Assembly (NCBI GenBank): GCA_963841995.1
Contig: CAWJEX010000003.1
Coordinates: forward strand, 154,081-218,080
DNA: 64,000 nucleotides
Direction of reading: 5' to 3'
Origin: an uncultured Alphaproteobacteria bacterium
GTDB lineage: Bacteria > Pseudomonadota > Alphaproteobacteria > DATDPM01
In this document: positions 22,899 to 60,835 of the stretch, piece by piece
Layout: every line of letters starts with the position of its first letter
Position numbering within the stretch: the stretch's first letter is position 1
Notes under the pieces: generated by a model
Database searches by the model: none
What the model was told of the DNA's origin: nothing
The model's input: only the letters and a program-made list of their open reading frames with translations
Translations under genes and position numbers: made by a program

Positions 22899-24639
22899 CT
22901 AATGCATCGGCGGCATCGGCATCGCGACGTCGACGCTATTCTTTCCGAACGCGACGACGCGGCTTGCCGGAAACGTCACCGTGACCACGGTCCCCTGGCC
23001 GACGGTGCTTTGCAACGCGATGGTCCCGCCATGAAGCGTGACAAGGCCGCGGGTAATGGAAAGCCCAAGTCCCACGCCCTCGAACTGGCCCGAGGTTTCG
23101 CGGCGGGCGCGCTCGAAGGGCTTGAAGACATGCTCGATCGAATCGGCCGGAATGCCGACGCCGGTATCGGAAACGCGGATCACCAAATCGCCGTTGTCGC
23201 CCCAGAGCGCGGTCATGTCGACCGCGCCGCCCTCGGGCGTGAATTTGATGGCGTTGGCCAGGAGATTGAGGAGAATTTGCCGCAAGGCTTTCGGGTCGGC
23301 CTCGATCGTGACGTTGCCGCAGGCGACGTCGGCGCGAAGCGCGATCGATTTCGCGCGGGCCTGAAGGCCGACGAATTTGATCGCCTGCTCGACCGCTTCG
23401 GCGAGCACCACATGCTCAATATTCAATGTGACGCGTCCCGCTTCGATCTTGGACATTTCCAAGAGATCGTTGATGAGCGCCAGCAGATGCTCGCCGCTCG
23501 AATGGATGAGCGCCGCATATTCCGTATATTCCTTGCTCGCGATCGGGCCGACGATTTCGCTTTTGATCATCGACGAGAAACCGATGATCGCGTTCAAGGG
23601 TGTTCGCAATTCGTGGCTCATATTGGCGAGAAACATCGATTTGGCGTTGCTGGCGCTCTGCGCTTCCTGCCGCTCGCTGACCAGGGCGACGATGGTCAGC
23701 ACATTGGTGGCCAGCACCACCACGAGCGTGCCGACCAACAGCAGGGGATTGGCCAAGGTTTGGTGCTGAAAGGGTCCAAATCCGGCGACCGTGCCGGCGG
23801 TGGCAAGCACGGCGACCAGCGAGACCAGGGTGTAGGCGGAACGGAGCGACATCCGCAACGCGATCCACGACAGCGGCACCACCAGCAGGAAGGGAAATGC
23901 CGGCCTGATGTCGTAGCCGCGCAGCGACGGCGTCAGGAACAGCATGAGGCTGATCAAAGCGACAAAGCCCCAAACCGCCATGTTCCGGCGATTGATCGCC
24001 CGGTCGGCCATGCGGACAGGCGTTTCAGGCTCCCGTTCGAGTCCCAGCCAAAGGATCACGGCCGGCGCCAGATAGAGCGTGCCGCCGCTGTCGGTGAGCC
24101 ACCACGTCACCCAGGTCGCGTAGAACTTGCCGGGATCGAACGGATGCCCGATCGCCAAAGCCGTGGCGCCGCCGGCGGCGCTGATCGCCGGGGCCAAAAA
24201 GGTGGTGCAGATGACGAAGGCCATCAGCCCGGCGATCGAGGTGAACAATCCGTTTTGCGGCCGCAAGCGCTTGAGGACCAGGATGCTGAGCACGGGACCG
24301 AGCGCGTTGGTCGCCGAAATGAGGGTGGTGATGTGCAAGGGCGGCGCGAACAAGATCGCATTGGCCAGAAACGAGCCCAGAAATATTCCCGGCAGCATCC
24401 GCAAATCGCCGACCATCGCAGCCACGATGGCAACGCTCGCCGGCAGCCAGATCGGCGCCGGGAACAGGCCATAGGAAGCGAAGAACGAATTGACCACCGA
24501 GCCGAGGGCGAAATAGAACGCCACGACCGCGGCATTGGCGCCGATCCAGGGCAAGGCACCGGCATCGGCAAGGAAGGGGGGCGTCCACGGCCGCGAGGGG
24601 CGTGGGATTGCGCCCGCGACCACTAATTCAACCGGCACT
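22899..24639 (-). CDS. sensor histidine kinase with a MASE1-type polytopic membrane sensor domain (orphan, no cognate response regulator nearby). The start is uncertain.
   Basis: The C-terminus has HisKA ('HELRTPLNAIIGF') and HATPase ('LLNLLANAIKF...GVGLGLSI') regions. The N-terminal ~330 aa form 8-9 TM helices. The ORF is open to 24824. A GTG at 24639 gives a plausible start. Confidence 0.8.
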
Positions 24640-24840
24640 GCAGATCCCCTGGCCCGGACACGGCGATGCCCCCCGACACGCGATACCCCCGTATTCTTAA
24701 CACGGGTATTCCGGATCAAAGGTTTTAAAGATTCCTGAAACCGGAAGATATTGGAATCGCGGGCCCGGGCGCCGGACAAAAATCCCAGGAAAATCCGAAG
24801 ATTTAGCCTGAGCCGCAACCGCAACTTGCCGACCGGCGGG

Positions 24841-25323
24841 TCAGGTTTGGGTATGCGCCTCGAGGAACCACAGCGCCTTGTCGAGGGCGCGGGAATAGGT
24901 TGTCAAAATATCCGCCGTGTCGGCGTCCCCGGCCGCGCTGGTCTCGTCGATACCGGCACGGACGGACTTGGCGACCTTGGCATAACGGTCGATCAGTGCC
25001 GCCAAATGATCTTTTTCCTTAAAGATGTCGGTCGGGTAGGGCGACAGGGCCGTGGATTTTGCAACTACTTGCGTGGTCCCGAGGGCGGTTCCGCCCAATT
25101 GCACGACGCGCTCGGCGATCGTGTCGACATGGGTGTCGAGTTCGGTTCGAAAGCCGTCGATCATTTCATGGAGGGCGATGAATTGCGGCCCCTTGATGTT
25201 CCAATGCGCCTGCTTGGTCAGCAGCGCCAGGTCGATCGAATCGGCCAGCCGCGCGTTGAGAATTTCGACGACGACTTTCTTTGTATTTGATTTCAGATCG
25301 TTATGGGCTTCGTACGATTTCAT
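24841..25323 (-). CDS. dps: Dps (DNA protection during starvation, ferritin-like)
   Basis: 'LNARLADSIDLALLTKQAHWNIKGPQFIALHEMIDGF' is the ferroxidase-centre region of Dps. Confidence 0.9.
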   Translation of the reverse strand: MKSYEAHNDLKSNTKKVVVEILNARLADSIDLALLTKQAHWNIKGPQFIALHEMIDGFRTELDTHVDTIAERVVQLGGTALGTTQVVAKSTALSPYPTDIFKEKDHLAALIDRYAKVAKSVRAGIDETSAAGDADTADILTTYSRALDKALWFLEAHTQT

Positions 25324-25427
25324 GCCTGCCCCCGTGATGGTTTAGAACTATGCCCGATACCGGATTTAATTAGGCGCGGAACCAGCCGGAAACAAGCCGG
25401 CACGCTGATTTGAATGGTGATCTGCCG

Positions 25428-26228
25428 TCACGCATGCCGGAATGCCTCGGCTGCTATCAACTCCTGATAGGCCTGCGCCAGCAAGCGCGCGAGCAGCGGA
25501 GCCCACGCTCGCTGCCCCTCGTCGCCGGCGATCAGGTCCTGGCGAATTTCGATTGCAACGTGATGGAGGCCTCGTCGCTCGCCGTGTACTGGGATGGTGT
25601 AATCCGTCGCGTCGGTCACGCTGTAGGGCTCGTTGTCGCCGACGATGAGCCCCTCTTCGCGTTTCAGCGCCGCCATGAGGAAATGGGCGAAACGCGGATC
25701 GCGATTGTAGAGCACGCCAACGTGCCAGGGCCGCGCCGCGCCCTTGAAGACAGGCGCAAAGCTATGCATCGCCACCAGCACCGCCGGTCGGCCGGCTTGC
25801 CGCCGCCGGTCAAGTTCGGCTTCGATCCGATCATGGTAGGGCCGGAAAATCTCGCCGACGCGCGCGGCCTTCCGGCCTTCGCTCAAGCCCGTATTTCCCG
25901 GAATAGGGGTCAGCTCGCTGATTTCCGGGATCGATGTCTCCGAGCCCGGCATGCGGTTGCAGTCGATGACCAGGCGCGAATAGCTCTGCTGCACCAGGGT
26001 GGCGTCGAGAGCGTCCGCGATGAGGCGGGAGACCGCGGCGACGCCGACGTCCCAGGCGATGTGGCGATCGCATTCGGCTTCCGGAACGCCCAGCCGGCCG
26101 AGCGCGCGCGGAATGGCATTGCCCGCGTGATCGGCGACGATCAGGAATGGCGACGAGCCGTTTTCGTTGCGCACCGTGACCGGCGCCGGCTCGTCGGCCG
26201 CCAACAGGCTATCGGACATCTCGGTCAT
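25428..26228 (-). CDS. N-formylglutamate amidohydrolase (HutG-like, FGase) family protein
   Basis: 'FLIVADHAGNAIP...' matches the FGase/zinc-hydrolase fold family over its full length. Confidence 0.7.
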   Translation of the reverse strand: MTEMSDSLLAADEPAPVTVRNENGSSPFLIVADHAGNAIPRALGRLGVPEAECDRHIAWDVGVAAVSRLIADALDATLVQQSYSRLVIDCNRMPGSETSIPEISELTPIPGNTGLSEGRKAARVGEIFRPYHDRIEAELDRRRQAGRPAVLVAMHSFAPVFKGAARPWHVGVLYNRDPRFAHFLMAALKREEGLIVGDNEPYSVTDATDYTIPVHGERRGLHHVAIEIRQDLIAGDEGQRAWAPLLARLLAQAYQELIAAEAFRHA

Positions 26229-26362
26229 TGGCGCTCACGCTCGTGGCTGAAACGCCGGTATGGTAGCGACATGCGCTGTTCTTGGCCCGAAAAATGCCTG
26301 TCTAGTAAAAATGCGTGTTTAGTAATGCATGTTAGTGGGGCTTGTCCCATTGGGGAACTGCA

Positions 26363-27257
26363 ATGCCGATAATCGCCATCAGGCACGTCACGACCTATCG
26401 CTATAAGCAACCGGTCTCGTTCGGCGAACACCGGATGATGTTGCGGCCGCGCGACGACGACGACCAGGAGCTGCTCGAATCCGAGCTCGAAATCACGCCC
26501 GAGCCGAGCCAACTTACCTGGATACAGGATATCTTCGGCAATCATGTCGCGATCGCCCGTTTCGCGGAGCCGGCCGCAGAGCTTCGCTTCGTCAGCACCA
26601 CTTGTGTCAACCACGCGCCGTCGGGGCTTCCACGCAGCCGATAGCGATAATTTTGCCCGAAGATATCCGTTTGGCTACGCCGCGGAAGATAGACCGGGGC
26701 TCGCGAGTTTTATCGCGCCGCTGGCATCGCAGCCCGCGCTCGATCGCTGGGTCGCCAGGTTTCTCCGCGAGGACGGATCGGCCGACACCCACGAACTTCT
26801 CGTCGACATGACGCAGACCATCAAGCGGACCTTCAAGCACACGGCGCGGCACGAGAAGGGCACCCAGGATCCGATCAGGACGCTGAAGCTCGCGAGCGGG
26901 AGTTGTCGCGACCTTGCGGTGCTCATGATCGCGGCGCTGCGCTCGCTTGGAATCGCCGCACGGTTCGTGTCCGGATATCTGCATCTTGCCGATGACGGCG
27001 ACCGTGTCGCCGGCGGTAACACCCATGCCTGGGTCCAGGTCCACGTTCCCGGCCCGGGCTGGGTCGACTTCGATCCGTCGAGCGGCATGGTCGGGAATCA
27101 GAACCTGGTGCGCGTCGCGGTCGTGCTCGAGCCGCGCGAGGCGATTCCGTTGCAAGGCACGTGGATCGGGACCGCGTCGGACCATCTCGCCATGAAGGTC
27201 GCGGTCAAGGTCACCGCGGCAGCGGATGCCGGCGCGACGTGGTCCCGCGCGGGATGA
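26363..27257 (+). CDS. transglutaminase-family protein (Bact_transglu_N + transglutaminase-like Cys-protease core), with an apparent frameshift at ~26595-26635
   Basis: 'MPIIAIRHVTTYRYKQPV...LRPRDD...DIFGNHVA' is the N-terminal domain (ORF 26342..26644). 'YPFGYAAEDRP...GSCRDLAVLMIAALRSLGIAARFVSGY...HAWVQVHVPGPGWVDFDPS' is the core with the catalytic Cys (ORF 26544..27257). The two overlap in different frames. Confidence 0.65.
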
Positions 27258-27353
27258 TGACCCGGCCTCGACGTGCGGCCATTCGTCGCGCGCGCGAAGA
27301 CCGGAATTTTCGGTCTCTCTTGGCACGCCGGCGCCGGCGCCGAGAGGTTTTCG

Positions 27354-28182
27354 ATGAAAATTCGTGCAGGCTACGAGATTTCCTATGACTGCCCGCAGCC
27401 GACGCCCATGATCCTGACGCTGAGCGTCCATCCGTCACGCGTTCCCGATCTGCTGACCCGGGATCGCATGCCGTCTCGATCCGCCCATCCCCGCCAACAC
27501 CTATCACGACAGTTTCGGCAATTTCTGCCACGTGATCCGCGCCCCCGCGGGCCGGCTGACCATGTCCACGGACTTCCTGGTGCAGGACAAGGGCGAGCCG
27601 GACGCGATCGCCCCGCAGGCGGAGCAGCATGCGCTCGAAGACCTTCCGGTGGAGGTCCTGATCTATCTGCTCGGCAGCCGCTACTGCGAGACCGATCGTC
27701 TATCGAATACGGCGTGGTCCCTGTTCGGGCAGGTTCCGAAGGGTTGGCCGCTGGTGAAGGCGATCTGCGACTACGTCCACGATCGCATCACCTTCGGTTA
27801 CGAGCACGCGAGCCCGACCAAGACGGCATGGGATGCCCATACCGAGCGACGCGGCGTGTGCCGGGACTTCGCCCACCTCGCGGTCACGCTGTGCCGCTGC
27901 ATGAACATTCCGGCGCGCTACTGCACCGGCTATCTCGGCGACATCGGCGTGCCGCTCGACGATCCGCCGATGGATTTCAGCGCCTGGTTCGAAGCCTATC
28001 TCGGCGGCCGCTGGTACACCTTCGATGCCCGCCACAACAAGCCGCGCATCGGCCGCATCCTGATGGCACGCGGGCGCGACGCCACCGACGTCGCGATCGT
28101 GACCTCATTCGGCCCGTGTACGCTCGCGAGCTTCAAGGTGATCACCGACGAGGTCACGTCGACCGCTCCCGCGAGTCCGTGA
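27354..28182 (+). CDS. transglutaminase-family protein, paralogue of the previous gene, with an apparent frameshift at ~27466-27480
   Basis: 'MKIRAGYEISYDCPQPTPMILTLSVHPSR' is in frame 1. 'DPPIPANTYHDSFGNFCHVIRAPAGRL...RGVCRDFAHLAVTLCRCMNIPARYCTGY...FSAWFEAYLGGRWYTFD' is in the adjacent frame. Confidence 0.65.
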
Positions 28183-29083
28183 CGGTTTCAAGCCCCGCGG
28201 CGCCGAAATTGTCGCTTCACTTGCCCTCGCGGCTGGCGATGGCGTCCCCTATGTCACCGTCTCGGCTGTCCTGGTGGATTTCTAAACGGTGCCGCCTTCA
28301 CCATCGGCAGCGTGAACAAAACCTCACCATCACCACCCAACAACTCACCAGCCCGAACCGGCAAGCGCGAGCGCGAACCCAGGAGGATAACTGGCGGAGG
28401 AAGGGAGGTGTTTGGTGGGGTTATTTTTGCTGACGCGCGCAGGTTACCCTATTCCGGGAAAATCCTTTCCTTGCCGTCGTCGGTTCTCAACAGACCACCA
28501 TAATATGGAGGCCCCGATGCAGCGTAATCCCGTATTTCCTGCGGTCTTAAAAGTCGTTCATGTACCATCAGAGCTTGCTTTGAGATTTCCCCGACATCGT
28601 CGAAGGCAGTTATGTTCAGTTCCGCTCCTACGACGAACCCCAGCGGAATCTCCTTGGGTGCTCCTGCACCGTCTTTCGTGATCGTTCGGGCCGAAGCAAC
28701 TGACGCACCAAGTCCTCAAACCGGTGCGGGTCTAAATCTTCAAAGTGAAGAGGATTTATGGTTTTCGTCGCCGACGACATACGTTAGCAAAGAGTTTGAT
28801 CAAGAGTGTCTAATTCCCTCTATTGGCCGGAATGGCTGCCGTATGAAGCATTTCGTTTATTGCTCGCCCAATCCTTTTCCACACCACCGCGCCGTCCAGA
28901 ACGCCAGCCGCCAGAAAATTGGCCGCCCTCATCGCCGCGTAAATACGGGCGTGTGTGCGCCGTGCTGCTTGATGCGGATGCGTGCGGAGCGGAACGCCAG
29001 AAGTCTTAGTCACCTGCATCCCTTCCGTTGTTTTTCGCACCTCTCTGCAGCATTATAGCTCGGCGCAAAGGACGGGGGATGGC

Positions 29084-29263
29084 ATGAAACCGACATTTTT
29101 CCTCATAACTGCGCTTTTCATCTTGACGGTGGCACCAACTATTGCTGCAGCCTTTGGCTGCGGCTTGCCACCGCTGCCACCGTTGGGTTGCGAGGCCTCA
29201 AGCGGACAATGCATTTGCGACGCGAACGGAAATTGCCAATGGATATTTACCCACTGCCACTAA
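29084..29263 (+). CDS. small secreted Cys-rich peptide (59 aa; six Cys in the ~35-aa mature part)
   Basis: 'MKPTFFLITALFILTVAPTIAAA|FGCGLPPLPPLGCEASSGQCICDANGNCQWIFTHCH'. The ORF has a signal peptide and a purine-rich stretch ahead of the ATG. It lies in locally low-GC DNA. Confidence 0.4.
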   Translation: MKPTFFLITALFILTVAPTIAAAFGCGLPPLPPLGCEASSGQCICDANGNCQWIFTHCH

Positions 29264-29856
29264 TCAATCGCGGGCTTTTCGAACCGACTGCCGACCCAGT
29301 GCTCATTATTTTGCGGCAGGGACGAAAGGTTATTCCGCTAGCCGCTCTTATCTTAGTAGCGGTTGTTTGGCTGCGTTCGCAGATCGACGGATTTCTACAC
29401 GGTCCAGATGGATGCGGGCCAGTAAGTGGGCGACTGACGCTACGCCAACTCCACCTTGCATTCAGAGCTCCATTTTCGAACAGGAATACTCGACGCGCCC
29501 CGCAATGCAATCGGGCGGCATCGGGGCTGCTCCCGACCGCAGGTAATGTGGCATTACATCCGGAGACGGCGACTGGGTTCCGTTCCGCGTGAACCGCGGC
29601 GTCGTCGCCGTACTGCTTGATGAGAATGTGCACGGAGCGCCAGATGCCGACGTCGCCTGTTGCCATTCGATGACGCGCTTTACGATTTCCCGACAAACAG
29701 TCGTGTTTTTTTACACTCAAGAATTGATGACAACGCTTAACCGCATGAATTCCCAGAAATCTCGGATATTGGCCCAAATCTTGCGTTAACTATTTTGGAC
29801 TACCGGAGATCTGGCTGGGTGGCACTTAATCTCCGGAGCAACTGGTGGAGTCACGA

Positions 29857-30462
29857 ATGCGGAAGCTTGGTTTATGGATGGCGTCGGCTGCCTTCATTGC
29901 TTTCCAGGTGCCGTACGCGAACGCAGATACTTTCGATTGGAGCTATACCGACGTACCGTTTGGAGGCTCCGACGTGGGGGGCGGCACGCTCACAGCAACC
30001 GATGATGGTTTAGGTCAATACACCCTTGATACAATTTCGGGCACGGCCGATGGGCAGACCGTTTTAGGGCCCAGCTCTTATGATGGTCCCGATCAGTTTT
30101 TGTATTATTTCCCTCCTCCTGATGTTCAATGCAGTGGCGCGAGTGCGCCTTGTCCGCCGGGAGGTACTTATGTCGCCCTTGATACGGGGGGGTTCTCATT
30201 CAGTGTGGGGGCGGGGACGGATTCGTACAATCTCTACGAAGATGATGGTGTCTTTAGTCCCGGCCCTCCCTATGGCTGCGGAGGAGTCTATTGCCTGTTG
30301 GGGCCGGGAACAGTTGGCGCTGGTGATCCATTTACTACCGTAGAGTTTTCGCTAACGCCCGTTCCCGAGCCAGCATCTCTCGGCATCTTCGGCATCGGTC
30401 TAGCGGGCCTCGGCTGGATGCGCCGCCGTCGCTTGGCCTCACGGGCTCTCAAGGCCGCGTAA
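29857..30462 (+). CDS. PEP-CTERM (exosortase-sorted) secreted protein
   Basis: It has a signal peptide and ends 'VPEPASLGIFGIGLAGLGWMRRRRLASR' (VPEP motif + TM + Arg cluster). The body is Gly/Thr/Asp-rich. Confidence 0.65.
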   Translation: MRKLGLWMASAAFIAFQVPYANADTFDWSYTDVPFGGSDVGGGTLTATDDGLGQYTLDTISGTADGQTVLGPSSYDGPDQFLYYFPPPDVQCSGASAPCPPGGTYVALDTGGFSFSVGAGTDSYNLYEDDGVFSPGPPYGCGGVYCLLGPGTVGAGDPFTTVEFSLTPVPEPASLGIFGIGLAGLGWMRRRRLASRALKAA

Positions 30463-30581
30463 ACCGGATCATCAAAGAGTTTTCCAGCGGCGGTTCCCTC
30501 GTGGAGCCGCCGTTTTTGTTTGCGCGTGAACCGCCACGCTTGCGCCGTCCTTGACGCAAGCGTGGCGGTCAAACGTATGCC

Positions 30582-30743
30582 CTACGAACCGGCGCGATCT
30601 TCCTGCATGGCGGCGAGATATTCATAAATCGTCGCCTTCCCAAGAACCAATCGGTGGGCGACGGCTGCTGCTTTCGGTGAAAGCGGCCGTTGTGCCCGTT
30701 CGATTATGTCCCGGAGAATTGGCGGAATCGGCATTTCTGACAT
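30582..30743 (-). CDS. orphan 53-aa HTH protein resembling the C-terminal HTH_7 domain of serine recombinases/resolvases
   Basis: 'MSEMPIPPILRDIIERAQRPLSPKAAAVAHRLVLGKATIYEYLAAMQEDRAGS*' was found by manual translation and is below the ORF-track length cutoff. The pattern 'VAHRLVLGKATIYEYL' is like 'VARRLGVSRSTLYRYL'. No catalytic domain lies upstream. Confidence 0.35.
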   Translation of the reverse strand: MSEMPIPPILRDIIERAQRPLSPKAAAVAHRLVLGKATIYEYLAAMQEDRAGS

Positions 30744-30942
30744 CACTTAAATCACCGCCTTTCGTGGGCGGGGAACTCAAGCGATCGGGTCGCGAATTCT
30801 ACCCGCCCGACACATAACGCTGCCGGCCGCGTGGGTGCAAGGTCCAGCTTCGGCTGGGGCTTTCGGGTGGCCTGGCTAATGGCGTATATTTTACAAATGC
30901 TTTACAGACGCCGGAGGCTGTTGCTTAAGCTATTGAAATGAT

Positions 30943-31018
30943 TGGCGTCCCCTAGGGGAGTCGAACCCCTGTTCCCGCCGTGAGAGGGCGGTGTCCTGGG
31001 CCACTAGACGAAGGGGAC
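30943..31018 (-). tRNA. tRNA-Glu (anticodon CUC)
   Basis: The reverse complement is a 76-nt cloverleaf with a 3' CCA: GTCCCCTTCGTCTAGTGGCCCAGGACACCGCCCTCTCACGGCGGGAACAGGGGTTCGACTCCCCTAGGGGACGCCA. The anticodon stem is CCGCC/GGCGG and the loop CTCTCAC. Confidence 0.9.
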
Positions 31019-32766: not shown

Positions 32767-33657
32767 ATGGCAACGAGCACCTCATACCGCCTGCCCAGCC
32801 TTGGATCGGAACGCGGCCTCTCGCGCTATCTCGGGGAGATTCGCAAGTTTCCGATGCTGACGCCGGAAGAGGAATTCATGCTCGCCAAGCGTTGGCGCGA
32901 GCATAGCGATTCCGAAGCCGCGCATCGTTTGGTCACGAGCCATCTCCGGCTCGTCGCCAAGATTGCGATGGGGTATCGCGGTTACGGACTGCCGCTCAAC
33001 GAACTTATTTCGGAAGGCAATGTCGGCATGATGCAAGCGGTCAAGCGCTTCGATCCCGACCGTGGCTTCCGGCTCGCGACCTATGCGATGTGGTGGATCC
33101 GCGCGGCAATCCAGGAATACATCCTGCATTCCTGGTCGCTGGTGAAACTCGGCACGACTGCGGCGCAGAAGAAGCTGTTCTTCAATCTGCGCAAGCTCAA
33201 GGGCCAGATCAAAGCGGTCGAAGAAGGCGATTTGACCCCCGAACACGTCAAGAAGATCGCCGAAGAGCTGAACGTGACCGAAGAAGACGTGATCTCGATA
33301 AATCGCCGGTTGATCGGCGCCGATCATTCGCTGAATGCGCCCTTGCGCGCCGACAGCGAGGGCGAGTGGCAGGATTGGCTGGTCGACGAAACGGCGAATC
33401 AAGAAGAGACGCTCGCCGAGAAAGAAGAAATGACCAATCGCCACGATCTGCTCGGACAGGCGCTGAAAACGCTGAGCGAACGCGAGCGGCATATCTTGAA
33501 CGAACGGCGCTTGCGCGACGAGCCGTTGACGCTCGAGGATTTGTCGCAGGAATACGGCATTTCCCGCGAACGGGTGCGGCAGATCGAGGTTCGCGCCTTC
33601 GAGAAGCTGCAAAAGGCGATGAAAAATCTGGTGATCGAGCAGCGCCTGGCAAAATAA
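32767..33657 (+). CDS. rpoH: RNA polymerase sigma-32 (heat-shock sigma factor RpoH)
   Basis: It carries the RpoH box 'QKKLFFNLRKLK' and sigma regions 2-4. Confidence 0.95.
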   Translation: MATSTSYRLPSLGSERGLSRYLGEIRKFPMLTPEEEFMLAKRWREHSDSEAAHRLVTSHLRLVAKIAMGYRGYGLPLNELISEGNVGMMQAVKRFDPDRGFRLATYAMWWIRAAIQEYILHSWSLVKLGTTAAQKKLFFNLRKLKGQIKAVEEGDLTPEHVKKIAEELNVTEEDVISINRRLIGADHSLNAPLRADSEGEWQDWLVDETANQEETLAEKEEMTNRHDLLGQALKTLSERERHILNERRLRDEPLTLEDLSQEYGISRERVRQIEVRAFEKLQKAMKNLVIEQRLAK

Positions 33658-33702
33658 TCTGGCGAAGTAATCAAGTCCCTTGGATCCCAAAAGCGAACGG
33701 GC

Positions 33703-33740
33703 TCTTAACAGAGCCCGTTTTCGTTTGTCCGTTTTCGGTC
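33703..33740. terminator. bidirectional Rho-independent terminator between rpoH and the convergent membrane-protein gene
   Basis: The hairpin aacgggctct-taac-agagcccgtt is flanked by a T-run on the plus strand. Confidence 0.55.
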
Positions 33741-33767
33741 TCGCCTGTTTTCGGATTCGGAGGCGCT

Positions 33768-34391
33768 TTATTGCGGCTTGGCCGGTGCTTTCGGCTCGGC
33801 GGCGATGCCCCATTCGTCGCGGAGCTTTGCTTGTTGCGCGCGCAGCGCCCCGATCTGCTGGGCCGCGTGGATCCTGAGAAAGCTGGCGACCAAGGGCGGG
33901 AGCCCCATGGACAAAAGCCAGCCCAGCGCCGCGGCACCATACATGACGAACCAGACATAGACGTCGCCCAGCATCGAGAGACTTTGGGTCAGCGTATTCG
34001 AGCCCTTCCACAGAATCGCGATGAAGGGTGCGACGCCGGCAAAATTGAGACCGAGCACGCAAATCGCGGCACTCTTGCCGGGGCTGCGATCCACGAAAAA
34101 CGCGACGGCGGTCGGAATCAAGCCGACGATCAGCAGCGGAACCGTCGGCAGAGCCAATACGAAGCCGAGCATCAGCAGGAATAAGCCGGCGACCCATGCG
34201 GCGGTGGCACTCGATTGCACCGGCCGCATGCTCGTTTTCACGGTGGCGGCCGGCTTGCCGGCCGGTTTTTTCGCCGATCGAGCCGATTGAACCGGCTTGG
34301 CCGGCGGCGTTGCCGGGGCCGGAGGCGCCGGCGGACGCTTGGCCGCTACTGGCAATTTGCGCCTAGGCGGCGGGGTTCTTAAGGTTGCCAT
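33768..34391 (-). CDS. hypothetical membrane protein (Pro/Ala/Lys-rich cytoplasmic N-terminus + 4 TM), translationally coupled to the upstream kinase-like gene
   Basis: Its ATG at 34391 lies 2 nt after the TAG of the upstream reading frame. The N-terminus reads 'PPAPPAPATPPAKP'. Confidence 0.45.
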   Translation of the reverse strand: MATLRTPPPRRKLPVAAKRPPAPPAPATPPAKPVQSARSAKKPAGKPAATVKTSMRPVQSSATAAWVAGLFLLMLGFVLALPTVPLLIVGLIPTAVAFFVDRSPGKSAAICVLGLNFAGVAPFIAILWKGSNTLTQSLSMLGDVYVWFVMYGAAALGWLLSMGLPPLVASFLRIHAAQQIGALRAQQAKLRDEWGIAAEPKAPAKPQ

Positions 34392-36457
34392 GGCGCTAAC
34401 CGTGTTGACGCATCAGCATGAGGATGCCGATGGTTGCGGTGATAACGACGGCGGAAATGATCCCGGCAACGCGCCCCGCCAGCGCCTGCGCCCGCCGGTT
34501 CATCCCTTGATCTTGGGAAAGAAAGACGATCGATTTCGGCTTCGGCGGCGGCGAAATTCGCAAGCGCGCCGCGGTAGCCGATTTCGTCGCGGGCACGGGC
34601 GCTGTCGTCGTCCACGAAATTCAAAAGCTCGATCAGACTTCCCTTCTTGATGACCCGTTCCAACTGCGCCTTCATCTCGATGCGAAGCGCGGTCTGGTGG
34701 TAGCCGTCGACAATCGATTCCGCGAGCTTGCCCATCCAGGCGGTAAGCCGCGGCACTTGCGACGGGCCGAGCCGCCACTGCATGATGGAAAGCGCGCGCA
34801 ATACCGCCAGAACGGCCGTTCGCGGATCGCTGCGGTCCGCGGTTTTTTCGACGTGATCTTCCGCTTCCGAACCAAATCGCGCGGCGATAAAGGCGGCAAC
34901 ATGGCGATCGATTGGAAACGAGGGCCGTGCGTTCGACGCGGCAACAACTTCAAGGACGGGAAGCAGGGATTCGGCATCCACGACGTAATAAGGTTCGAGC
35001 ATCGGGCTGAGGCACGGCAAGGCGGGATTGAGTTCGTAAAGGCAACGCTCGACGCCATAGCCCGGTAAGGGACGCTTCATGAAATAGCGCAGCCGGTCGA
35101 TGATCTTGACCAGCGTGCGCGCTTCAGGGCCGTCGCCATATCGCTTGTCGATCCACGCGAGCGGCAGATCGGAAGATATGAGTTGGGCGAAAGGTTGAAC
35201 GCCGTTGGGCTCGCGGGCCAAGCCGCACAACAGCGGTCCGATGCCATCGAGGGTCGCGGAAATATTCTTGAAACGAAGCGGGCCTTTGGGATCGAGGGCA
35301 ATGCACAGCCGGGCAGCCACTTGACCTTCTGCGGCACGGGCGGGATCGCCGCCGCTGGCCAGAACCTGACCGACCAAGTCGCCGGCCTTGTTGTCGCCCA
35401 CCGAGCGTCTGACCCAGGCTTCGAGATCGATTTCGCGCACCGCTTGGTTGGCTGCCGCCCAATTGCGGGCGATGGCATGAGCGAGCCCACGGCAGGAATA
35501 ATATTCGCCGCCGCAAAACGGGTAAGCGCGCCCGGCATGGGGCGGAACGGCCGGTTGAATCGGACTGAGCCGGCGGCCGTCGAGCCAGAACGACAACTCC
35601 TTCAGGCTCCATCGTTCCTTGGGATCGTCGGCGAGCAGGCCGCGAATTGCCTCGCGCAAAACCGAAGATATGCGATGGGAACCGGCGAGCGCGGTGTAAG
35701 AGCCCTTGGCGATTTTGGCACCGATCAAATCGTCAGGAGCGACGCCGGCAACCGGATTGAAGCCGAGGCTTAACAACAACAGCGTGGCGCCCAAGGAATA
35801 AAGATCGTCCCCGATCGAACCCGGGCCGCGCCCCAGCGGATCGGCCATGCCGTTCTCGATCGTCTCGAACAGCGGCGAGTTCGTCGAACCGGCGGGTGCG
35901 ATGGCGCCGTCGCCCAGAACGACCTGCCGGTGAGCGGCATCCTTGAAATAGATGTTGTCCGGGCGGATCGCGCGATGCGCAATGCCCCGCGACGAAAGCT
36001 CCGTGAGCGCGGTGGCGAGAGGCCGGGCGACATGTTCGATGAGCGCATCGTCGGTCATTGGTGTCACCGAGGCGAGAGACGGCATGACCGCCGTGCCGCC
36101 AGGCTGGCTGTAAAGGATCGCAAACCGCCGGCCGGCACCGTCCGGCCATTCGATCGCCGCCCAGCGATAGGCTTTGATGACAAACGGACAGTCCGTCGAG
36201 CGTAGCGACGGCAACACATCCATCCGCGGTGGATTCCGGTTGCGCGCCACCAGAGCCATCAGGTTTTCCCGAGCACCCTTGGTGTCGGTGACGGCGTAAC
36301 AGGTCGCGGCGGGCGTATCGTAAGCAGGGAGCGGACGGCCGGGATGAATTTCGTAGCGGTCGAGCGTCACCGCCGCCGCTGACGCGTCGTTATCCGCCGC
36401 GCGCCGGTTTCGGGCGGGCGGCGCCTCGTCTGCGGTCAAAGGTTCGACTTGCGCCAT
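34379..36457 (-). CDS. eukaryotic-like protein-kinase-fold protein, probable pseudokinase, with a ~350-aa C-terminal domain of unknown function
   Basis: The kinase catalytic-loop and APE/DxWS-like regions are recognisable, but 'GIAHRAIRPDNIYF' has HRA instead of HRD. The DFG position reads 'LGDGAIA', then 'DLYSLGATLLLLSLG'. There is no beta-3 Lys. The last ~25 aa look like frame garbage. The adjacent frame reads '...FLSQDQGMNRRAQALAGRVAGIISAVVITATIGILMLMRQHG*' (a TM helix), ending at 34396. Confidence 0.5.
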   Translation of the reverse strand: MAQVEPLTADEAPPARNRRAADNDASAAAVTLDRYEIHPGRPLPAYDTPAATCYAVTDTKGARENLMALVARNRNPPRMDVLPSLRSTDCPFVIKAYRWAAIEWPDGAGRRFAILYSQPGGTAVMPSLASVTPMTDDALIEHVARPLATALTELSSRGIAHRAIRPDNIYFKDAAHRQVVLGDGAIAPAGSTNSPLFETIENGMADPLGRGPGSIGDDLYSLGATLLLLSLGFNPVAGVAPDDLIGAKIAKGSYTALAGSHRISSVLREAIRGLLADDPKERWSLKELSFWLDGRRLSPIQPAVPPHAGRAYPFCGGEYYSCRGLAHAIARNWAAANQAVREIDLEAWVRRSVGDNKAGDLVGQVLASGGDPARAAEGQVAARLCIALDPKGPLRFKNISATLDGIGPLLCGLAREPNGVQPFAQLISSDLPLAWIDKRYGDGPEARTLVKIIDRLRYFMKRPLPGYGVERCLYELNPALPCLSPMLEPYYVVDAESLLPVLEVVAASNARPSFPIDRHVAAFIAARFGSEAEDHVEKTADRSDPRTAVLAVLRALSIMQWRLGPSQVPRLTAWMGKLAESIVDGYHQTALRIEMKAQLERVIKKGSLIELLNFVDDDSARARDEIGYRGALANFAAAEAEIDRLSFPRSRDEPAGAGAGGARCRDHFRRRYHRNHRHPHADASTRLAPWQP

Positions 36458-36616
36458 ACGCACCTTGGGCCATGGGCACCTTTCCCCGGCACTCTCGATC
36501 TTTAACCGCAAATGGTTGTTAAATGATTGATTTTGCCTGACCTGGCGCTGCTATTTTTTAAGCACTTATAATGGCTTACGCAGCAATCATCGGTTGCGAA
36601 ACCACATCCCTTGGGG

Positions 36617-37909
36617 TCAATCGGCGAAGGGATCGCGGACCAGGATGGTGTCTTCGCGTTTGGGGCTGGTGGAGAGAAGAGCCAGGGGCGCTTCAATCAG
36701 CTCTTCAATACGCCGGACATATTTGATGGCCGGGGCCGGCAGATCGGCAAAGCTGCGCGCCCCCTTGGTGCTTTCGAACCAGCCAGGAAGCGTCTCGTAA
36801 ACTGGTTCGACCGCCGCCTGAGCGCCAATACCCGCCGGAAGAAAGTCGAGTTTCGTGCCCTTATGGTTGTAGGCGATGCAGATTTTGAGCTCGTCCATGC
36901 CGTCGAGCACGTCGAGCTTGGTCAGGGCGATGCCATCGATGCCGCCCTGTTTCACCGCCTGACGGACCAGCACCGCATCGAACCAGCCGCAGCGGCGCTT
37001 TCTTCCCGTCACCGTCCCGAATTCATGTCCGCGTTCGCCAAGCCCTTGTCCCACGGCGTCCAAGAGCTCCGTCGGGAAAGGCCCGCGGCCGACCCGGGTC
37101 GTATAGGCCTTGGTGATGCCGAGAACGTAATCGAGCGCGCGGGGACCAAGCCCCGATCCCGCGGCCGCCTGTCCGGCCACGGTGTTGGATGACGTGACGT
37201 AAGGGTAAGTGCCATGGTCGACGTCGAGCATGGCGCCTTGCGCACCTTCGAACAGAATTCTTTTCCCGCGCTTTCGCGCCTCATCGAGACGTTCCCAAAC
37301 CCGATCGGCGTAGGGAAGAATTTTTCCCGCGATGTCCATCAGCAATTTGATGAGTTCATTGCGATCGACGGGGGCCGCATTGAGGCCGCGCAGCAGCGCA
37401 TTGTGATGCACCAAAAGCTGATCCACCCGATCGGCCAAGGTTTCCGGCTCGCGGAGATCGCACAGGCGCACCGCCCGGCGCCCGACCTTATCCTCGTAAG
37501 CGGGACCGATGCCGCGGCCGGTCGTTCCGATCTTTAAGGCTCCGCTGGCCTCTTCCCGCGCCCGGTCGATCTGGCCGTGGAGCGGCAAAATCAGCGCCGC
37601 GGTTTCCGAAACCTTCAGCGTGTCGGGCGAGACCGCGACACCGCGCGCTTTGATGGCGTCGATTTCCTTGATCAACGCCCACGGATCGACCACGACGCCG
37701 CTGCCGACAATCGACAGCTTTCCCGGCCGCAACACGCCGGAAGGCAATAAACTTAATGCGTAAGTCTGGCCGTCGACGACAAGAGTGTGCCCCGCATTGT
37801 GGCCGCCCTGAAAGCGCACCACCACATCGGCGCGCTCCGACAGCCAATCGACAATCTTTCCCTTGCCTTCGTCGCCCCATTGGGAGCCGACGACCACCAC
37901 ATTCGCCAT
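36617..37909 (-). CDS. purA: adenylosuccinate synthetase
   Basis: '[21 protein letters not shown]...GGHNAGHT' is the P-loop and signature of PurA. Confidence 0.95.
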
Positions 37910-37931
37910 GATTAGCCTCTGTTCGTTCGGG

Positions 37932-39065
37932 TTATGATAGCGCGGCGATTTTTCCGGCGAGAAAAACGTGGGTGCAACGAAGGCGCTTCGCTTCGGCCGT
38001 CGGCTCAATTTCTTCCAATCCGCAAACCGTTATCCAGCCTTCGCGACGAAGACGCTCCGCTTCATCGAGCGAAATTCCCACCGGCACAAAGACTCGCGCC
38101 CGCGCTTCGCCGCGCGGCAACGAATCGAGCACCGCATCGACAAAGAGGGTCGCCCCCGTCGCCGGTTCTCCTCCTGCGCGATAGCGCCCGCCCCGTCCCA
38201 TTTCGCCACGCGCACCATTGGCGAAAAGCGTGAAGCTCATGCCGCTGTGGTATTCGAAGCCGCGATGCTCGACCGGATCGATGGTGAGCGAGAGCGCCGG
38301 CATCGCCTTGGCAATTCGCGCCGCACCCTCGGTCAGCCGCCGGCACTCGGCAGCGGCAGACTCGGGCAAACTTAGTCGCGACAATGTTGCCAGCGCCAAC
38401 TCGGCGGGGCCCGATGCGCCGAGCAATTTCAGAAGTATCGGCGCCGCCGAGCCCCCTGCGGCGGCAACGCCGGCGGCGTCGCGGCGGTTGAGCGCAGCCT
38501 TGATTCGCGTTTCGGCATCGCTGGACAGCCCGGAGGCAGCGCAGACCGCGGGAACGAGCGTCGGCATGGTGAGATCGGCGGAAAGACCGTTCACGCCAAC
38601 CGATTCGAGGGCAGACACCGCAAGGGTCACGATTTCCACATCGGCCGCCGCCGAATCGGAACCCATCAGCTCGATCCCGGCTTCGGTGAATTGGCGCTCG
38701 GGGCGAAGCTGGGTTCCCTTCACCCGCAAAACCTGGCCGGCATAGCAAAGCCGGAGCGGACGCGGCGCATTGGCCAGCCTCGTCACGGCGATGCGGGCCA
38801 CCTGCACCGTCATGTCGGCGCGCACCCCCATCATGTGCTGGGACACCGGATCCATCAGGCGGAAGGTCTGGCTTGAGGTCGCAGCACCCGCGCCTGAAAG
38901 CAGGCTGTCCTCGAATTCGACCAAGGGCGGATCGACCTGCTCGTAGCCGTGGCTCTCGAAACAGGCCAAGAGCTTGGTCAGCGCCAGGGACGCGAACGCC
39001 GCATCGGGCGGCAGCACGTCGCGCAGGCCGGCCGGCAAAAGCGCCTTGTTCGAGACCTCGTTCAT
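37932..39065 (-). CDS. hisZ: ATP phosphoribosyltransferase regulatory subunit HisZ
   Basis: It has the class-II aaRS-like fold motifs ('[10 protein letters not shown]', '[11 protein letters not shown]') and HisZ length. Confidence 0.85.
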
Positions 39066-41997: not shown

Positions 41998-42079
41998 ATT
42001 ACGCCAAATCTCAAACCGCCCCACCGCCAGACCTCGATCCCGCTTGACCCACCCTTCCTCCCGTTCCACCATGCCGGTT

Positions 42080-44085
<2,006 letters not shown>

Positions 44086-60624: not shown

Positions 60625-60820
60625 TTCATGAATGGAGCGGCCGTTGTAGCATGAACGTCAGAAGCAGGTGGAGCCGCGGGGCCGTTGGCCATTGTAACCC
60701 TTGGAGCCTGCCTCAGCAGGTGGGCGCCATATGTCCAGAACCAAGGTTCCAGCAGGGACGGCTCCCTTTGTAGAAGTGTTGGCCCCGGGGAAAACTGAGG
60801 CCTGACGCACCGCGCAGCCC
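60625..60820 (-). ncRNA. ssrS: 6S RNA (SsrS), inferred. Ends are approximate.
   Basis: A non-coding gap lies between zapA and ygfA, the conserved position of ssrS (it is cotranscribed with ygfA in E. coli). The region has long-range complementary arms (cgtcag...ctgacg, gcctcag...ctgaggc, ccccggggcc...ggccccgcgg) typical of the 6S closing stems. The only ORF there (60658..60861) has an implausible composition. Confidence 0.5.
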
Positions 60821-60835
60821 CACCCGTATTTGACT

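Follow-up and report, generated by a model that had tools for sequence, protein, structure and literature searches.

The cataloguing of bacterial pseudokinases is at an early stage. A 2025 atlas and a review name seven families, ActPs1-3, GLW, CP1, DYD, and DLHK (bioRxiv 10.1101/2025.01.12.632604; PMC12599244); almost none of them has a known function, and the atlas left ~100,000 sequences unclassified (bioRxiv 10.1101/2025.01.12.632604). Here, we describe a pair of adjacent genes from a 64,000-nucleotide (nt) stretch of DNA of an uncultured Alphaproteobacteria bacterium (NCBI GenBank assembly GCA_963841995.1, contig CAWJEX010000003.1, positions 154,081 to 218,080 of the forward strand), hereafter the window. 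The first gene encodes a predicted pseudokinase with a C-terminal membrane anchor, and the second a membrane protein with four predicted transmembrane (TM) helices. The pair belongs to an uncharacterised pseudokinase family that spans an order, carries a new accessory domain, and has a dedicated membrane partner, and we propose a putative function for it. This family may be among the sequences that the atlas left unnamed.

Several described systems resemble the pair in part. GLW proteins carry a GLW motif in place of HRD and LLLL/W at beta3, and the Asp of the DFG motif is lost in 100% of them (PMC12599244; bioRxiv 10.1101/2025.01.12.632604). DLHK proteins keep HRD and have helicase/DNA2 domains, CP1 proteins have a COG3899 ATPase domain and no TM region, and DYD proteins are marked by a DYD motif (PMC12599244). 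EssB/YukC, of type VIIb secretion (PDB 6Z0F), is missing all catalytic motifs, and its role, alongside other small membrane proteins, is that of a structural hub (PMC12599244). The MviN/MurJ-linked pseudokinase of Mycobacterium (ActPs3, PDB 3UQC) binds no ATP and acts through protein-protein contacts (PMC12599244).

Kinase-like domain and its relation to described families

Searched as a single sequence against Pfam, the product of the first gene gave only a sub-threshold match to the kinase C-lobe (22.3 bits vs a cut-off of 31.7). A profile built from 115 relatives matched solved kinases with an E-value of 1e-10 over residues ~54-291, and an AlphaFold (AF2) model of residues 1-646 had a predicted local distance difference test score (pLDDT) of 91.8 and a predicted template modelling score (pTM) of 0.89. 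On the strength of this profile match and the confident model, we assign the domain a complete two-lobed Hanks-type kinase fold. Its closest structural matches were canonical active kinases, not EssB.

Profile alignment with kinases located the catalytic positions. The HRD Asp position is taken by A163 (in H161-R162-A163), V70 aligns to the beta3 Lys (K93 of MAPKAPK2), D80 to the alphaC Glu, and D183 of "LGDGA" to the DFG Asp. The initial annotation of this locus had reported HRA in place of HRD and a missing VAIK lysine, and both losses extend to all 246 family members in which residues were counted. Position 163 is A in 171, G in 27, N in 19, S in 18, E in 3, and Q in 2, and D in none; the motif at the HRD place has H in 236, R in 201, and A in 171. 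Position 70 is V, I, L, or A but never K, in a beta3 strand that reads L-(F/M)-A-L-V-C across the family. The beta1-beta2 loop is Pro-rich rather than Gly-rich, and no GxGxxG motif was found within residues 30-60. The same annotation had GDG replacing DFG, which is right as literal sequence, but the Asp of GDG aligns with that of DFG and the metal-binding acidic position is therefore kept; 111 members have D there and 125 have E (236/246, 96%). The catalytic-loop Asn is likewise retained (N168, 241/246), as are the structural core residues D218 (245/246) and R282 (243/246). Position 80 is D or E in 175 members, and position 167, next to N168, is variable (D143, T43, N17, S15). A further set of residues is family-specific and nearly invariant, comprising R78 (231), R165 (224), R210 (240) within R210-G-x-G, and W283.

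Of the features of an active kinase, the family thus lacks the beta3 Lys, the catalytic Asp, and the Gly-rich loop, and has the catalytic-loop Asn and an acidic DFG position. Since the HRD Asp and beta3 Lys are missing in 246/246 members, the loss of catalytic residues is family-wide and a local artefact is excluded. Combined with purifying selection (below), this loss identifies the proteins as pseudokinases by sequence.

Judged by published motif descriptions, the window family fits none of the seven named families. GLW is the nearest by description: both are mainly proteobacterial and consist entirely of pseudokinases, both have a Hanks-type domain followed by a C-terminal TM region, and both have a hydrophobic residue in place of the beta3 Lys. 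However, the window family has HRA(I)RPDN where GLW has its namesake motif, (F/M)ALV(C) instead of LLLL/W, D or E at the DFG position, and an extra 340-amino-acid (aa) domain; this comparison is one of published motifs, not of the sequence of the GLW representative MBH9021688.1. DLHK, CP1, and DYD differ further, as the window family is without the HRD Asp and without a helicase or ATPase domain, and has a TM anchor. Public databases name the homologs "hypothetical protein" or "serine/threonine protein kinase," and no curated Pfam or NCBIfam family covers either protein of the pair, in keeping with the initial description of the pair as uncharacterised.

EssB/YukC likewise sits in the membrane and has its pseudokinase domain in the cytoplasm, at the N-terminus, but it belongs to Firmicutes and has an extracellular domain past its TM helix, whereas only four residues (RQHG) follow the helix in the window protein. 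No type VII secretion genes were found near the pair in the window or in related loci, where the neighbors are purA, hisZ, rpoH, and rluD. In ActPs3, a dead kinase domain is physically coupled to a polytopic envelope membrane protein. That domain is fused to the lipid II flippase, whereas the window pseudokinase is a separate, tail-anchored protein encoded beside a 4-TM protein; ActPs3 is also actinobacterial, and its HRD...N loop and DFG motif are wholly lost (PMC12599244). By architecture, context, and taxon, EssB/YukC and the MviN pseudokinase are best regarded as functional analogies and not as relatives. PknB-type receptor kinases are catalytically active and have extracellular PASTA sensor domains after the helix, whereas the window protein is inactive by motif, carries its extra cytoplasmic domain ahead of the helix, and is predicted to expose nothing beyond the membrane. 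Anti-phage defence kinases (PglW, MAD6, PD-T4-6, and MkoA) were considered and rejected, with partial kinase-domain matches of 12-48 bits vs cut-offs of 460-990 and a housekeeping gene context.

C-terminal domain, membrane anchor, and reading frame

The kinase-like domain is followed by a domain of ~340 aa, slightly smaller than the ~350 aa first proposed. Residues 310-646 were modelled as all-alpha with two short beta-hairpins, and secondary structure prediction gave two units of a beta-hairpin plus four helices. As initially annotated, this region is without a known function: Pfam and NCBIfam have no family for it, and no relative was found among solved structures. Profile matches in the PDB were confined to 25-residue designed armadillo repeats, which we judged spurious, and sequence comparison gave no support for an internal duplication (hhalign probability of 4%). 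With an E-value limit of 1e-3, the domain profile retrieved 1,619 clusters (each with a representative at 50% identity), of which 1,033 lay at ≤ 1e-30; a family of this size is far beyond chance. In the top 150 of the 1,619 clusters, every full-length protein has the domain at residues ~300-640 of a ~680-aa protein, and from this fixed position we conclude that it always accompanies the kinase-like domain. Invariant or near-invariant residues include W348, D389, P393, E470, R471, Y474, E475, N477, C482, D517-R518-H519, G606, and D624. The polar residues among these suggest a specific binding or active site and not a mere spacer.

The protein closes with a long helix that runs into a hydrophobic segment of ~20 residues and then RQHG. 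The hydrophobic segment is present in 24/24 aligned homologs. Because it lies near the C-terminus and there is no signal peptide, the protein is predicted to be a tail-anchored inner-membrane protein with its bulk in the cytoplasm.

In the window, a frameshift separates this anchor from the rest of the gene. The comparison was made with L001, the closest relative, which comes from a metagenome-assembled alphaproteobacterium and is 93% identical in protein and ~90% in DNA; a T-run has three T in the window (CGTCTTTCTTTCCCAAG) and two in L001 (CGTCTCTCTTCCCAAG). Deleting one T from 34518-34520 gives a protein of 686 aa that is collinear with ~120 homologs of 660-710 aa and is a 93% end-to-end match to P0001/L001. 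The true 3' end in the shifted frame is identical to P0001 at 38/40 residues, and the alternative frame (34396..34596) holds the TM helix and ends in SQDQGMNRRAQALAGRVAGIISAVVITATIGILMLMRQHG and a stop, the C-terminus seen in every homolog. The last 46 codons of the open reading frame (ORF) as listed (FPRSRDEP...APWQP) have no matches and are out of frame relative to all homologs. A TM helix encoded in an adjacent 3' frame ending at 34396 had been predicted at the outset and is borne out, although the gap to the ATG of the membrane-protein gene is 4 nt (CGCC), not 2. The shift falls 40 codons ahead of the stop, and its repair alters the last 40 residues only, so that the repaired frame does not contain an intact HRD or DFG.

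A distribution scan of one genome per species found relatives in at least 596 species; all locus counts below refer to its 80 best relatives. The pseudokinase gene is in a single frame in 80/80 related loci, including one that is 90% identical in DNA, which rules out programmed frameshifting at the T-run. The extra T is thus seen as private to the window; it reflects an assembly error or else a lesion that is very recent. As written in the window, the protein would be without its membrane anchor.

Partner protein, conservation of the pair, and proposed function

The partner had been described as a Pro-rich 4-TM protein. Four TM helices are indeed predicted by hydropathy, from three hydrophobic blocks of which the first has the length of a hairpin, but the Pro-rich N-terminus is lineage-specific: this Pro/Ala/Lys-rich extension is confined to close relatives of the window, and the conserved core of the protein is ~150 aa. 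Core motifs are LPT...G.LPT.VA, VGG.NFAG..P...LW, and YGAA.GW, and the invariant residues are P93, A97, N116, G157, P165, W194, and G195. No Pfam family and no PDB relative were found for the partner, and its homologs are named "hypothetical protein" in the sources, save for two isolated JGI labels (TraB and DUF805). These homologs were found in Rhodospirillales/alphaproteobacterial sources only.

The 80 best relatives are Magnetospirillum, Phaeospirillum, Skermanella, Roseospira, Caenispirillum, Telmatospirillum, Oleisolibacter, Lacibacterium, and Arenibaculum, together with Stellaceae, Elsteraceae, Kiloniellales-type, and unclassified Alphaproteobacteria. In 74/80 loci, the next gene downstream is a same-strand partner homolog, or in 74 of the 78 that are informative, as two others are cut by contig ends; the two genes are thus co-conserved, as the initial annotation had supposed. 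The spacer is ≤20 nt in 62/73 measurable loci, mostly -4 to +20 nt, in counts that took the start nearest the upstream stop and so favor short spacers. Of the 80 loci, 57 have purA upstream and 44 have an opposite-strand rpoH downstream, which in two of the 44 is ~5 kb further off. Seen from the weakest partner homolog, the order is serA-hisZ-purA-pseudokinase-partner, convergent with rpoH-rluD. The pair stays adjacent at loci where purA or rpoH has moved away, so the pair, and not its flanks, is the conserved unit. We place the gene pair in the core genome shared by Rhodospirillales-type alphaproteobacteria.

Individual loci depart from this arrangement. In Phaeospirillum tilakii (L062, 7980..8760), an intact pseudokinase gene is followed by an opposite-strand gene for a 250-aa multi-TM protein that is not the partner. 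In Roseospira visakhapatnamensis (L065, 7977..8300), an intact pseudokinase gene is followed by an opposite-strand 90-aa ORF, again not the partner, which we take by eye to resemble glutaredoxin. A 3.96-Mb genome (L082, 5001..6074) has a partner homolog amid many fragments of transposases and integrases, and no pseudokinase gene was called upstream of it; the 357-aa product called there seems to be an ORF extended too far, in which the partner is the last ~200 residues. In a Magnetospirillum metagenome-assembled genome (L064, 4349..5785), the pseudokinase frame is open for ~420 nt past the end of the match (to 4740), over the partner frame, and the partner frame is open to 5785, overlapping the opposite-strand rpoH. 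These overlapping frames are probably an assembly or high-GC ORF artefact.

Compared with L001, the pseudokinase had a ratio of nonsynonymous to synonymous substitution rates (dN/dS) of 0.20 and the partner one of 0.35, values that point to purifying selection on both genes. Their evolution is about four times faster than that of purA or rpoH. A mirror-tree analysis was undiscriminating, with partial correlations of 0.55 for pseudokinase-partner vs 0.49 for pseudokinase-purA and 0.46 for pseudokinase-rpoH. The pseudokinase showed much the same correlation with every gene compared, probably because its evolution is the fastest.

We lean, with modest conviction, toward a model in which the two proteins form a stoichiometric inner-membrane complex and the pseudokinase with its helical domain acts as a non-catalytic scaffold or switch. 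The first gene product would be tail-anchored, with a cytoplasmic kinase-fold domain that has no Gly-rich loop, beta3 Lys, or catalytic Asp and is predicted to pack rigidly on the ~340-aa helical domain. Its single TM helix, at the extreme C-terminus, would hold it to the membrane. The second gene would be translated from a start 4 nt past the stop of the first, in a two-gene operon, and its four-helix product has invariant Asn, Pro, Gly, and Trp predicted to lie in the helices and a conserved C-terminal helix predicted to be cytoplasmic. The scaffold or switch body would then bind a cytoplasmic partner or ligand, the 4-TM protein being the membrane-embedded part, and the complex may have a link to the envelope.

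Several observations weigh against this model. N168, the acidic DFG position, and the invariant R78, R165, and R210 would also fit a ligand-binding or catalytic site, as would the invariant polar cluster of the C-terminal domain (E470, R471, Y474, C482, D517, R518, and H519) if it were read in the same way. At four intact loci (three Phaeospirillum-like and one from Roseospira), no partner adjoins the pseudokinase, and other genes follow it there; one partner homolog is in a locus disrupted by an insertion sequence (IS), without an adjacent pseudokinase. The mirror-tree result gave no specific signal for the putative interaction of the pair. Should the frameshift be real, the system might not function in the window organism.

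The retained residues raise the question of whether the kinase-fold domain is instead an atypical enzyme that modifies a membrane substrate, like SelO (AMPylation) or SidJ (glutamylation), with non-canonical nucleotide binding via Asn168, Asp/Glu183, and the family-specific arginines. SelO is an active enzyme despite having been classed as a pseudokinase. The near-invariance of N168, R78, R165, and R210, the conserved acidity of position 183, and the frequent acidic residue at the alphaC Glu position (D80) would fit such an enzyme, and SelO itself, with the non-HRD catalytic loop HGVMNTDN, is listed among kinase-fold proteins classed as pseudokinases (PMC12599244). We nevertheless consider an enzyme of this kind unlikely. 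SelO and SidJ retain the beta3 lysine (PMC12599244), which the window family never has; the Gly-rich loop is missing too, and no Pfam or NCBIfam match to SelO-type families was obtained. D167 does not offer an alternative catalytic base, since it varies across the 246 members. Less probable still is the reading that the two genes are mere neighbors, with unrelated functions, in a housekeeping block (serC/serA-hisZ-purA ... rpoH-rluD). The whole block is syntenic across the order, so that adjacency alone could be inherited gene order, and the mirror-tree gave no specific signal. Against this stand the adjacency of the pair even where purA or rpoH has moved off, the short same-strand spacing, and the restriction of partner homologs to Rhodospirillales/alphaproteobacterial sources; of two such loci that were looked up, one was beside the pseudokinase and the other was IS-disrupted and without it. 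Coincidental neighborhood is accordingly very improbable.

A separate question is whether the window gene itself is a genuine pseudogene or an unanchored variant. Were the extra T real, the protein would lose its TM helix and gain a 46-aa Arg/His-rich out-of-frame tail overlapping the partner start by 13 nt. The T is present in the sequence as given, and homopolymer errors typically arise in runs longer than three T. Across ~6 kb aligned to L001, it is also the only indel within the two coding regions whose length is not a multiple of 3, so the stretch is not riddled with assembly indel errors. However, every related locus has the gene in one frame, the remaining gene is stop-free and has the low dN/dS given above, and the shifted 40 codons still specify the conserved anchor at near-identity to P0001. 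For these reasons the lesion, if real, would be very recent, and we regard a true pseudogene as doubtful, though less so than the enzymatic reading of the family.

More speculatively, the family may be an eighth, as yet unnamed, bacterial pseudokinase family in which the E/R/Y/C/D-R-H cluster, together with the Asn and Asp/Glu, forms a ligand-binding or catalytic centre and which, with its 4-TM partner, constitutes a Rhodospirillales-wide inner-membrane sensor or regulator. Such a pair may report the state of the membrane or envelope to RpoH, the heat-shock sigma factor encoded by the convergent gene just downstream in about half of the loci. This extended proposal we consider quite improbable as a whole. 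The interest of the family lies in its size, with at least ~600 species representatives and >1,600 clusters, and in its place in the core genome of an order whose model organisms include Magnetospirillum, Rhodospirillum-like phototrophs, and Azospirillum relatives. It also lies in the fixed architecture, the dedicated membrane partner, and a 340-aa domain whose confident model is unlike any solved structure. The pair offers a genetically tractable case for the role of a dead kinase fold at a bacterial membrane, though no long-standing question depends on it.

Locus map and other features of the window

The coordinates of both genes and the rpoH and purA flanks given in the initial annotation match the ORF list, and the features of the locus are collected in Table 1.

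Table 1. Features of the pseudokinase-partner locus, in window coordinates
Feature	Position	Strand	Basis or detail
Mechanical ORF, TTG start, 710 aa	34379..36511	-	ORF list
Pseudokinase gene, repaired reading, 686 aa after dropping one T	34396..36457	-	Two frames in window
Degenerate Hanks-type kinase domain, aa ~30-295	35573..36370	-	HRAIRPDN 161-168, LGD 181-183, D218, R282-W283
C-terminal all-alpha domain of unknown fold, aa 310-646	34520..35530	-	pLDDT 94.6 modelled alone
Frameshift site, T-run of three T	34518..34520	-	Window vs closest relative (L001)
True 3' end in shifted frame: SQDQGMNRRAQALAGR, TM helix, RQHG, stop TAG (34398..34396)	34396..34518	-	
C-terminal TM anchor VAGIISAVVITATIGILMLM, aa 663-682 of repaired protein	34411..34470	-	4 residues after
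Partner gene, 207-aa polytopic membrane protein	33768..34391	-	ORF list, alignments
Partner Pro/Ala/Lys-rich N-terminal extension, aa 1-62	34206..34391	-	<30% occupancy over most of its length in a 71-protein alignment
Partner conserved membrane core, aa 63-172	33876..34205	-	Hydropathy and conservation
Partner predicted cytoplasmic C-terminal helix, ends W194-G195, consensus Q..LVEEWG	33804..33875	-	Alignment
purA, flank	36617..38008	-	ORF list
rpoH, flank, convergent with partner gene	32767..33657	+	ORF list
Shine-Dalgarno-like AAGGTG	36461..36466	-	3 nt 5' of ATG 36457, read from sequence
Spacer CGCC, 4 nt, pseudokinase stop to partner ATG 34391	34392..34395	-	Identical in L001
GC-rich hairpin between convergent partner gene and rpoH	33695..33720	.	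A-tract before, T-tract after

The pseudokinase most likely starts at ATG 36457 rather than at the TTG of the mechanical ORF, because homologs begin MAQVE or MSQVE there and the Shine-Dalgarno-like element lies just upstream. The 18 codons 5' of this ATG are unconserved, even in L001, and homologs have either no such extension or a different one; for this reason the first 18 aa of the 710-aa ORF, like its last 46, are probably not part of the real protein. The hairpin between the partner gene and rpoH, with its A and T tracts, is probably a bidirectional intrinsic terminator for both convergent transcripts. Just past it, at 33721..33745, is a short GTTTGTCCGTTTTC-like repeat, of which L001 has 28 nt more, so its copy number differs between close relatives. 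No sigma-70-like promoter was detected in a scan of 33500-36900, and no Rfam elements were found in the pseudokinase/partner region.

Elsewhere, the window has ~5.5 kb at 25413..30928 vs ~0.8 kb in L001, beside a tRNA-Glu gene (30943..31018, - strand). The extra DNA encodes N-formylglutamate amidohydrolase-like, transglutaminase-like, and PEP-CTERM proteins, and its right half (28200-30800) has a guanine-plus-cytosine content of 0.55-0.56 vs 0.62-0.65; no integrase was found among the ORFs checked there. At 24668, there is a one-base difference from L001 in the length of a C-run, between ORFs 22902..24626 and 24751..25290, and the difference is probably intergenic given that it falls between listed long ORFs. 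Rfam also identified a thiamine pyrophosphate (TPP) riboswitch at 42076..42209 (+ strand, 61.8 bits) and a 6S RNA (SsrS) at 60667..60823 (- strand, 79 bits).

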